NCBI RefSeq assembly: GCF_055900595.2
Contig: NZ_CM148325.1
DNA: 64,000 nt
Strand: one strand, 5' to 3'
Position numbers and translations under genes: made by a program. Within the stretch, counting starts at the first letter, position 1; the number at the start of each line of letters is the position of its first letter. The notes under the pieces are model-generated. The model was not told the origin of the DNA. It saw only the letters and a list, made by a program, of their open reading frames with translations, and did not search any database. Positions 4,953 to 7,682 of this stretch are shown here, piece by piece.

Positions 4953-6071
4953 ATGAAATACGATCTCATCATTATTGGCAGCGGTTCCGTAGGCGCTGCC
5001 GCCGGGTATTATGCAACCCGTGCCGGTTTAAACGTGCTAATGACCGACGCCCATATGCCACCGCATCAACACGGCAGCCACCACGGCGATACGCGATTAA
5101 TTCGCCATGCTTATGGTGAAGGCGAAAAGTATGTCCCGCTGGTCCTCCGCGCGCAAACGCTGTGGGATGAACTCTCCCGCCACAACGAAGAAGATCCCAT
5201 TTTTGTACGCTCTGGCGTCATTAACCTTGGCCCGGCTGATTCCACATTTCTCGCCAACGTCGCCCACAGCGCCGAACAGTGGCAACTCAACGTTGAAAAG
5301 CTCGATGCGCAAGGGATTATGGCCCGCTGGCCGGAAATACGCGTCCCGGACAACTACATCGGCTTATTTGAGACTGATTCCGGCTTTTTACGCAGCGAAC
5401 TGGCGATTAAAACCTGGATTCAACTGGCGAAGGAAGCGGGTTGTGCGCAGTTGTTCAACTGCCCGGTCACCGCAATTCGTCATGACGATGATGGCGTAAC
5501 TATTGAAACCGCTGACGGTGAGTATCAGGCGAAAAAGGCGATTGTCTGCGCGGGAACATGGGTAAAAGATCTGCTCCCGGAACTGCCTGTCCAGCCCGTA
5601 CGCAAAGTATTTACCTGGTATCAGGCCGATGGTCGCTATAGCGTGAAGAATAAATTCCCGGCGTTTACCGGTGAACTGCCCAATGGCGATCAATATTATG
5701 GTTTTCCGGCAGAAAACGACGCGTTGAAGATTGGCAAACATAACGGAGGCCAGGTTATCCATTCAGCGGATGAACGTGTTCCGTTTGCGGAAGTCGTCAG
5801 CGATGGCTCGGAAGCCTTCCCGTTCTTGCGCAATGTATTGCCGGGTATCGGTTGCTGCCTGTACGGCGCTGCCTGCACCTATGATAATTCGCCTGACGAA
5901 GATTTTATTATCGATACTCTACCCGGCCACGATAATACACTGCTCATTACCGGCCTGAGCGGGCACGGTTTTAAATTTGCGTCAGTTTTAGGGGAAATAG
6001 CTGCCGATTTTGCGCAAGACAAAAAAAGCGATTTTGATTTGACGCCATTCATGCTTTCCCGCTTCCAATAA
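4953..6071 (+). CDS. solA: N-methyl-L-tryptophan oxidase
   Basis: 372-aa ORF with N-terminal FAD-binding GxGxxG ([15 protein letters not shown]); recognised as SolA. Confidence 0.93.
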
Positions 6072-6080
6072 TCATCATTA

Positions 6081-6106
6081 CGGCCTCCAGAATGAGGCCG
6101 TTTTTA
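6081..6106 (+). terminator. Rho-independent terminator after solA
   Basis: Hairpin CGGCCTC-cagaat-GAGGCCG followed by TTTTTA. Confidence 0.65.
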
Positions 6107-6232
6107 CAGGAGTATTTAATGCGTCGGCTGTTGCACTATCTCATCAATAATATTCGCGAGCATCTGATGCTTTATCTTTTTCTCTGGGGACTGTTGGCAA
6201 TTATGGACCTGATCTACGTGTTTTATTTTTAG
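6092..6232 (+). CDS. yceO: Small membrane protein YceO (46 aa; alternative 37-aa start at 6119)
   Basis: Short ORF not in supplied track: [46 protein letters not shown]; hydrophobic C-terminus; first ATG lies inside the solA terminator hairpin, so start is uncertain. Confidence 0.45.
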
Positions 6233-6493
6233 TTTTTCCGCACTGACATAAACTGACAAATATTTAATCTCCCTTTCATTTAGCGTGAAAAATTGAATGA
6301 GATTCTTCCTGCCTCTACAGCACTCACCAGACCTTCCAGATGCTGAACCCACTAAACTTATGAAGATTCTTTCATTATTAATTCAAAATTATTGAAATAA
6401 AAATAAATATCATTCAATTTGTTATTTTTGTGTTGCAATTCATTCTCCGACACGCCATTTTCTTTCTCTCGCAAATTCTTTTTGGATGCACTT

Positions 6494-7060
6494 ATGTCAT
6501 TCACAAATACCCCTGAACGCTATGGTGTTATATCTGCGGCCTTACATTGGCTAAGCGCAATTATTGTCTATGGCATGTTTGCTTTAGGTCTGTGGATGGT
6601 CACGCTCAGCTATTACGATGGCTGGTACCACAAAGCACCCGAATTGCATAAAAGCATCGGCATTTTGTTAATGATGGGGCTGGTTATTCGCGTTCTTTGG
6701 CGTGTCATATCTCCACCGCCGGGTCCGCTGCAAAGTTATTCGCCCATGACTCGTGTTGGCGCAAAGGCTGGACATCTTGCATTGTACCTATTGCTCTTTG
6801 CCATCGGCATCAGCGGCTATCTGATCTCAACTGCCGATGGTAAACCGATCAGCGTTTTTGGCTGGTTTGACGTCCCCGCGACCCTCGCCGACGCTGGCGC
6901 ACAGGCTGACTTTGCCGGTGCCCTGCATTTTTGGCTCGCGTGGAGCGTCGTAGTACTGTCCGTTATGCACGGATTTATGGCCCTGAAGCATCATTTCATC
7001 GATAAAGACGACACTCTGAAGCGCATGCTGGGAAAGTCGTCATCTGACTATGGAGTATAA
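6494..7060 (+). CDS. yceJ: Cytochrome b561-family protein YceJ
   Basis: 188-aa product MSFTNTPERYGVISAALHWLSAIIVYGMFALG from internal ATG of ORF 6419..7060; four hydrophobic segments with conserved His. Confidence 0.88.
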   Translation: MSFTNTPERYGVISAALHWLSAIIVYGMFALGLWMVTLSYYDGWYHKAPELHKSIGILLMMGLVIRVLWRVISPPPGPLQSYSPMTRVGAKAGHLALYLLLFAIGISGYLISTADGKPISVFGWFDVPATLADAGAQADFAGALHFWLAWSVVVLSVMHGFMALKHHFIDKDDTLKRMLGKSSSDYGV

Positions 7061-7639: not shown

Positions 7640-7654
7640 GCGTGAAATGTTGCC

Positions 7655-7682
7655 GGATGACACGCATCCGGCAATGATTTTT
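7655..7682. terminator. Bidirectional hairpin terminator between convergent yceI and trhO
   Basis: GCCGGATG-acac-GCATCCGGC hairpin with flanking T-run. Confidence 0.55.

Follow-up and report, generated by a model that had tools for sequence, protein, structure and literature searches.

Which of two in-frame ATG codons opens yceO, and what becomes of the start site when the first of them lies inside a hairpin that follows the upstream gene solA? YceO is a poorly understood membrane peptide with reported links to acid stress and to biofilm formation. The whole stretch analysed here, referred to below as the window, comprises 64,000 nucleotides of E. coli DNA. Its segment 5900-6500 is 100% identical to that of strain Z0117EC0005 and shares 95-99% identity with nearly all of 5,424 complete genomes, while 4,163 of 5,413 genomes agree fully over a 70-nt region. 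According to the ORF list and the RefSeq annotation, the genes bssS, solA, yceO, yceJ and yceI follow one another in this order on the plus strand. The features needed for the argument are the following:

4953..6071, plus strand: solA, N-methyl-L-tryptophan oxidase (ORF list; RefSeq annotation of the identical strain and of MG1655)
6069-6071, plus strand: solA stop codon TAA (sequence)
6081-6087, plus strand: 5' arm of the hairpin, CGGCCTC (sequence)
6088-6093, plus strand: hairpin loop, CAGAAT (sequence)
6092-6094, plus strand: ATG1, first codon of the 46-aa K-12 annotation (b1058) (sequence)
6094-6100, plus strand: 3' arm of the hairpin, GAGGCCG (sequence)
6101-6105, plus strand: TTTTT after the stem (sequence)
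6108-6112, plus strand: Shine-Dalgarno (SD) motif AGGAG, 6 nt upstream of ATG2 (sequence; SD:anti-SD duplex)
6119-6121, plus strand: ATG2 (sequence)
6119..6232, plus strand: yceO coding sequence as favoured by the evidence, 37 aa (PGAP coordinates; Pfam PF10968; conserved start; pN/pS)
6230-6232, plus strand: yceO stop codon TAG (sequence)
6233..6494, plus strand: yceO-yceJ spacer, AT-rich and devoid of terminator-like structure (best terminator score in 6225-6500, -52)
From 6495, plus strand: yceJ coding sequence (RefSeq)

Counted from the solA stop codon, the hairpin begins after 9 nt and ATG1 after 21 nt, the A and T of this triplet being in the loop and its G being the first base of the 3' arm. 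In MG1655, ATG1 and ATG2 correspond to 1119447 and 1119420 of the minus strand. The open reading frame 6092..6232 encodes 46 residues, and 37 when read from 6119. An earlier note on this DNA had placed ATG 6092 within the loop and 3' arm of the solA hairpin, and a second ATG, opening a 37-aa product, at 6119; the coordinates of the former match the sequence, and reading the frame confirms the latter. The same note had proposed that the shorter form might be the real one, the small protein having been mis-delimited, a proposal that is now strongly supported by the SD motif, the family profile, conservation across genera, the pattern of substitutions and a natural stop variant, each described below.

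At the protein level, the 46-aa translation matches the Pfam family PF10968 (DUF2770) with a score of 79.1 bits, where the gathering threshold is 25 (E = 2.4e-22), positions 1-36 of the profile aligning with residues 10-45. The profile, which has 36 positions, begins exactly at Met10, the residue encoded by ATG2, and most representative DUF2770 proteins begin at profile position 1. The maximum of the Kyte-Doolittle hydropathy in a 19-residue window is 2.15, at residues 25-43 in the numbering of the 46-aa form. YceO is thus predicted to be a small single-pass membrane protein of the DUF2770 family, with one hydrophobic segment. In every RefSeq genome inspected, PGAP annotates a CDS of 114 nt and 37 aa, WP_001253418.1, named 'YceO family protein', whereas the K-12 record NC_000913.3 (b1058) and the UniProt entry YCEO_ECOLI hold 141 nt and 46 aa. 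The product read from 6119 is identical to WP_001253418.1 and matches the full 36-position profile, and the sole difference is the nine extra N-terminal residues of the curated K-12 entry (b1058, YCEO_ECOLI). No NCBIfam model matched the 46-aa query, even though the name given by PGAP is that of a YceO family, and a literature search by the family name DUF2770 found no publication. The 37-aa form is therefore already that of RefSeq/PGAP and Pfam; what is left is a mismatch with the curated entries of K-12 and UniProt, and no new biology is involved. A similar situation is found nearby, as the longest ORF of yceJ starts at a TTG at 6419 (213 aa) and RefSeq places the start at ATG 6495 (188 aa); yceJ is another case where the annotated ORF is not the longest one.

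The two candidate starts differ sharply in their ribosome binding signals. The AGGAG motif upstream of ATG2, with its 6-nt spacer, forms a duplex of -6.9 kcal/mol with the 3' end of the 16S rRNA, and an SD as good as this one precedes just 2% of 400 random ATGs drawn from the window. The corresponding value at ATG1 is -1.7 kcal/mol, against a mean of -1.76 for the random ATGs, so that ATG1 is without an SD. Thermodynamic accessibility was also considered as a discriminator between the two starts and was rejected: the opening energies of the regions from -19 to +16 are 15.4 and 15.6 kcal/mol for ATG1 and ATG2, respectively, and the mean unpaired probabilities are similar. The measure is uninformative because the ATG2 window clips the hairpin and because its SD pairs weakly with context-dependent partners. 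In structural terms, bases of the stem flank ATG1 on either side, and for the SD of ATG2 partial pairing is predicted, with partners that vary with the context.

Conservation across genera was assessed on a set in which one genome per species was scanned with two peptide patterns, yielding 35 loci from Escherichia, Enterobacter, Lelliottia, Leclercia, Atlantibacter, Kluyvera, Citrobacter koseri, Huaxiibacter, Intestinirhabdus, Pluralibacter and Pseudenterobacter. All 35 matches begin at residue 1 of the 37-aa form. The core start is kept throughout (33 ATG and 2 GTG), and the aligned start reads MR[RKH] in 35 of 35 loci. Running the check that had been suggested for the first nine codons, we found that the extension is not conserved: identity to the commonest residue averages 0.27 over codons 1-9 and 0.79 over codons 10-46, and when Escherichia is left out these values become 0.23 and 0.80. 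Genera share no resemblance in the nine upstream codons; among 29 loci outside Escherichia, five have an in-frame stop inside them and one has a start codon at position -9. The same scan, with one genome per species and two peptide patterns, returned no locus from Salmonella, Klebsiella or the Citrobacter freundii group, and the family may be patchy or its divergent copies may have been missed by the two patterns.

Within the genus, 12 Escherichia sequences were compared, with six E. coli genomes and the cryptic clades sampled. The core has a pN/pS ratio of 0.08 and the extension one of 0.59; changes in the core are mostly at third positions, and the synonymous rate is lower in the extension. 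Such a pattern is what is expected if the stem, the T-tract and the SD are constrained, and not the peptide. E. albertii and the majority of E. coli retain ATG1; three lineages of the genus (genomes of cryptic clades or of E. whittamii) have TTG in its place, and outside the genus it is absent. In E. coli S87, the spacer TATTTA has become TATTAA, which puts an in-frame TAA at extension codon 9, just ahead of ATG2, without affecting the 37-aa ORF. This strain (locus L041, NZ_CM151376.1) carries three substitutions within the 18 nt corresponding to 6101-6118, namely a T to C change in the T-tract, AGGAG to AGGGG, and TATTTA to TATTAA, which jointly weaken the terminator tail and the SD. Variation of another kind is seen in the 3' half of yceO (6170-6232), where many E. 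coli assemblies show frameshifted C-termini, for example ...SMCFIFSFPH, ...ITCFIFSFPH or a duplicated LYLY. These changes adjoin T-runs (CTTTTTC, GTTTTATTTTT), and they could be homopolymer sequencing errors or true length variation.

From this evidence, all of it read from sequence, we predict with high confidence that ATG 6119 is the functional start of yceO and gives a protein of 37 residues. Its calculated monoisotopic mass is 4715.55 Da (4743.55 Da if N-formylated), compared with 5893.15 Da (5921.14 Da) for the 46-aa form. The view that the real, or at least the principal, E. coli product is instead the 46-aa protein, with initiation at ATG 6092 on read-through transcripts, appears extremely improbable to us. 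It can call on the curated entries (NC_000913.3 and UniProt), on an ATG1 that is intact and a frame that is open in most E. coli, as the 4,163 of 5,413 genomes identical over 70 nt illustrate, and on the fact that the long ORF could be expressed from a plasmid (PMC12529367). It nevertheless asks for initiation at a triplet that has no SD (-1.7 kcal/mol) and lies inside a hairpin of -12 to -14 kcal/mol, and for a peptide whose first nine residues are unconserved outside Escherichia, are lost to TTG in three lineages and to TAA in S87, precede the first position of the family profile at Met10, and correspond entirely to stem, T-tract and SD.

Use of both starts, with the 37-aa protein as the major product and a minor, lineage-specific 46-aa proteoform arising by re-initiation at ATG1 after the solA stop codon, is in our estimate very unlikely, if less so. 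The short distances are in its favour, ATG1 being 21 nt and the hairpin 9 nt from the stop, as are the retention of ATG1 by E. albertii and the majority of E. coli and the existence of other E. coli small proteins with dual in-frame starts, such as YibX (10.1101/511675). A used proteoform sits poorly, however, with an extension that bears no sign of selection (pN/pS of 0.59, TTG in three lineages, the stop in S87), and the hairpin would re-form behind the terminating ribosome.

We accordingly return to a single start at 6119 and judge ATG 6092 to be a fortuitous in-frame triplet that is non-functional as a start. An in-frame ATG less than about nine codons upstream of a true start is not improbable by chance; the hairpin is real, as is the position of ATG1 inside it, and no design behind ATG1 is claimed. 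The 46-aa form is an artefact of the longest-ORF rule, by which terminator, SD and spacer were taken as codons. Cases of this kind are known from the TetRP and Ribo-RET studies of mis-annotated starts (Nakahigashi 2016, PMC4909307; Meydan 2019, 10.1101/520783), with which yceO shares an SD-less upstream ATG in the original K-12 annotation and a conserved downstream ATG with a strong SD; it differs from them in that the evidence for yceO is comparative throughout. Among the start-site profiling and TSS tables covered, those of these two studies included, none lists yceO, probably as a result of very low expression, and the main texts of preprints 10.1101/511675 and 10.1101/520783 do not mention it.

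The hairpin that surrounds ATG1 consists of a stem of 7-8 bp with 6 GC pairs and a loop of 6 nt, with a folding energy of -12.3 kcal/mol for the 7-bp form and of -14.0 kcal/mol for the 8-bp form that includes the optional pair A6080-T6101. It folds with a probability close to 1 whichever of three transcript contexts is used. Counting both strands, the 64-kb window holds five perfect 7-bp stems that have 5 or more GC pairs and run directly into T5; 30 block-shuffles give none. The hairpin scores d = +9.9 on a d'Aubenton-Carafa-type terminator scale. The built-in terminator scan did not list the hairpin at 6081-6105, likely because the A-T extension of the stem leaves only 4 T in the tail. In comparison with intercistronic Rho-independent terminators and attenuators, the element has the same GC-rich stem of 7-8 bp, the 6-nt loop and the T5 right after an upstream stop codon, with the SD of yceO 8 nt past the stem; unlike in those terminators, a short run of just 5 T precedes ACAGGAG, and some half of the orthologous loci have no T-tract. 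Another strong hairpin of the window, GTTGCCGGATG...CATCCGGCAAT at 7649-7675 on the plus strand, after yceI, has an energy of -17.5 kcal/mol and a poor T-tail, and we take it to resemble a REP-type palindrome more than a canonical terminator.

The stem-loop is found in every genus of the set. It begins 3-13 nt (median 8) past the solA stop codon in 36 of 36 loci, within a solA-yceO gap that measures 43-89 nt across loci, and its end is separated from the yceO start by 18 nt here, by 16-32 nt elsewhere and by 64-67 nt in Atlantibacter. Its sequence varies widely, with 16 distinct innermost 6-bp arm pairs among the loci. When the entire gap was aligned with MAFFT, in an alignment unfitted to structure, and fed to RNAalifold, the stem was recovered with compensatory changes in 5 of its 7 pairs. 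Of the cells, 94% are paired, and 41 carry double changes, compared with 14.7 +/- 4.6 in shuffles (reached by 0 of 500) and at most 5 in slid registers. The covariation score is likewise 0.408, against 0.182 +/- 0.022 in shuffles (again 0 of 500) and 0.10 or less in slid registers. A search of Rfam for a known RNA family gave nothing but a sub-threshold chance match.

The features that make a terminator of this stem are less constant. By the d'Aubenton-Carafa-type formula, the terminator score is above 0 in 19 of 36 loci and at or below 0 in the other 17, and six of the seven Escherichia loci score from +9.9 to +17. The T-tract is missing in Kluyvera (at most one T in 8) and in the Enterobacter cloacae complex. 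The conserved element is hence the stem-loop, and a role as terminator, which is plausible for Escherichia, is not universal. The conservation and covariation of the stem in all genera, where the T-tract is not conserved, raise the question of whether the hairpin serves chiefly in RNA stability or processing, by protecting the solA 3' end or capping the 5' end of a processed yceO mRNA, and not in termination. We hold this to be rather unlikely, as a perfect T5 follows the stem in Escherichia and six of the seven loci of this genus have terminator scores; the two roles can moreover coexist. In the part of the Term-seq tables of PMC7815308 that was covered, no 3' end is listed at the hairpin.

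How, then, would yceO be transcribed? In the reading that we prefer, the Escherichia hairpin would act as a moderate intrinsic terminator, with its stem of 7-8 bp and T5, and low-level read-through of this leaky terminator would provide the yceO mRNA. solA and yceO would form an operon with an attenuating intercistronic hairpin, at which most transcripts would be stopped or destabilised and a minority would pass. On the latter, translation would start at ATG 6119 by means of AGGAG at 6108-6112 and yield the 37-aa single-pass membrane protein, the nine extra codons of the long form corresponding to terminator stem, T-tract, yceO SD and spacer. The anatomy of the locus, the conserved start, the covariation of the hairpin and the coding signature are shown here; termination in vivo by the hairpin, and read-through as the source of yceO mRNA, are what we infer. 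Read-through is the most likely route because only 18 nt separate the stem from the start and because the 3' end of solA contains no promoter that is conserved or above chance. The very low level reported for YceO would be accounted for by a hairpin that stops or destabilises most transcripts. Taken together, we find it very probable that yceO starts at 6119, that ATG 6092 is accidental, that the hairpin is conserved and that yceO is expressed via read-through.

The earlier note had left the choice between read-through and a promoter of its own for the small gene. For the short form, read-through probably holds, and a promoter lying wholly downstream of the hairpin does not, as there is no room for it in 18 nt; for the long form, a downstream promoter is excluded by the position of ATG1 inside the hairpin. 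A start at 6119 could still be served by a promoter located in the 3' end of solA or overlapping the hairpin, instead of by read-through, with as candidate a -10 element made of the loop CAGAAT (6088-6093) and a transcription start around 6100, so that ATG1 would not be part of the mRNA. In three expression studies yceO is among the genes listed as changing and solA is not, in one of them beside the gad/hde acid-stress genes, and such an embedded promoter is for this reason kept as a live rival, possible although not probable in our view. The Escherichia loops CAGAAT, AATCAT, TAAGTT and TAAATT share the A at position 2 and the T at position 6 of a -10-like hexamer, and weak sigma-70-like matches (7-8/12) are present at 5883, 5931 and 6070. 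These candidates are nevertheless at chance level, a lenient sigma-70 scan giving 2 matches at 8/12 or better compared with 0.9 +/- 1.0 in shuffles, the built-in scan finds no sigma-70-like site on the plus strand, and the loop sequences of the other genera are not -10-like. Over the last 50 solA codons, the synonymous measure is 0.45-0.52 for a gene mean of 0.487, so that synonymous change is not suppressed, nor synonymous conservation raised, across genera. A conserved promoter in the 3' end of solA was consequently rejected, on both the unsuppressed synonymous sites and the chance level of the sigma-70 matches.

In each of the 35 loci, the gene immediately upstream of yceO is solA; five loci from Pluralibacter and Kluyvera (L032, L033 and L036-L038) have no yceJ homologue within 2.5 kb downstream of yceO. 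As solA is always upstream and yceJ is sometimes missing, yceO travels with solA and not with yceJ-yceI. A further idea, that the yceO SD pairs with the final codons of solA (UUCC/GGAG) and so couples translation of the two genes, was rejected as a conserved mechanism because the loci are inconsistent: the mean accessibility is 0.44 versus 0.53, with a clear drop in 9 of 36 loci.

Two further observations concern the interior of solA. The Term-seq supplement of PMC7815308 reports a bicyclomycin-sensitive 3' end within the gene, on the minus strand of MG1655 at 1120419. This site corresponds to about position 5120 of the window, some 167 nt into solA, and is presumably Rho-dependent; if real, it would further limit the transcription that reaches yceO. 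Separately, the stretch around 5610-5750 (codons ~220-250) is the sole part of solA with raised synonymous conservation (0.57-0.62 versus 0.487, z of 2.0-3.1), and it overlaps a terminator-like hairpin on the minus strand (5671-5658) and a 124-aa minus-strand ORF (5388-5762).

The position of the stem, 3-13 nt past the solA stop codon and 16-32 nt before yceO in most genera, with or without a T-tract, could also be read as that of a ribosome-sensitive valve, in which the ribosome that ends solA covers the 5' arm and briefly blocks its folding. This is a speculative reading, to which we attach a low probability. If true, read-through into yceO, and with it the amount of YceO, would be set by the closeness of translation to transcription on solA, and the E. 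coli hairpin would in addition hide a lineage-specific alternative start.

Protein evidence for YceO comes from a 2025 mass spectrometry study (PMC12529367). A chromosomal YceO-SPA fusion was seen there by immunoblot at a level estimated to be at least 10,000-fold below that of pBAD induction, and YceO is listed as detected by top-down MS. The authors cloned the annotated ORF, and one of the two targets chosen for native YceO was an 11-residue N-terminal peptide, which was detected by MS only from the pBAD24 construct of the annotated 46-aa ORF. This detection has no bearing on the native start, since the vector drives the first ATG.

The practical value of the correction is small, as it opposes the 46 aa of b1058 and UniProt to the 37-aa core of RefSeq/PGAP and Pfam, and it has some consequences for experiments. 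If Met10 is the true start, the 11-residue target peptide cannot occur in wild-type cells, and constructs for deletion, tagging or complementation that are built on the long ORF also take in the solA terminator. Furthermore, the corrected start makes the layout of the locus plainer: the hairpin stands between solA and yceO, and past it a separate promoter would not fit. This bears on studies of YceO regulation.
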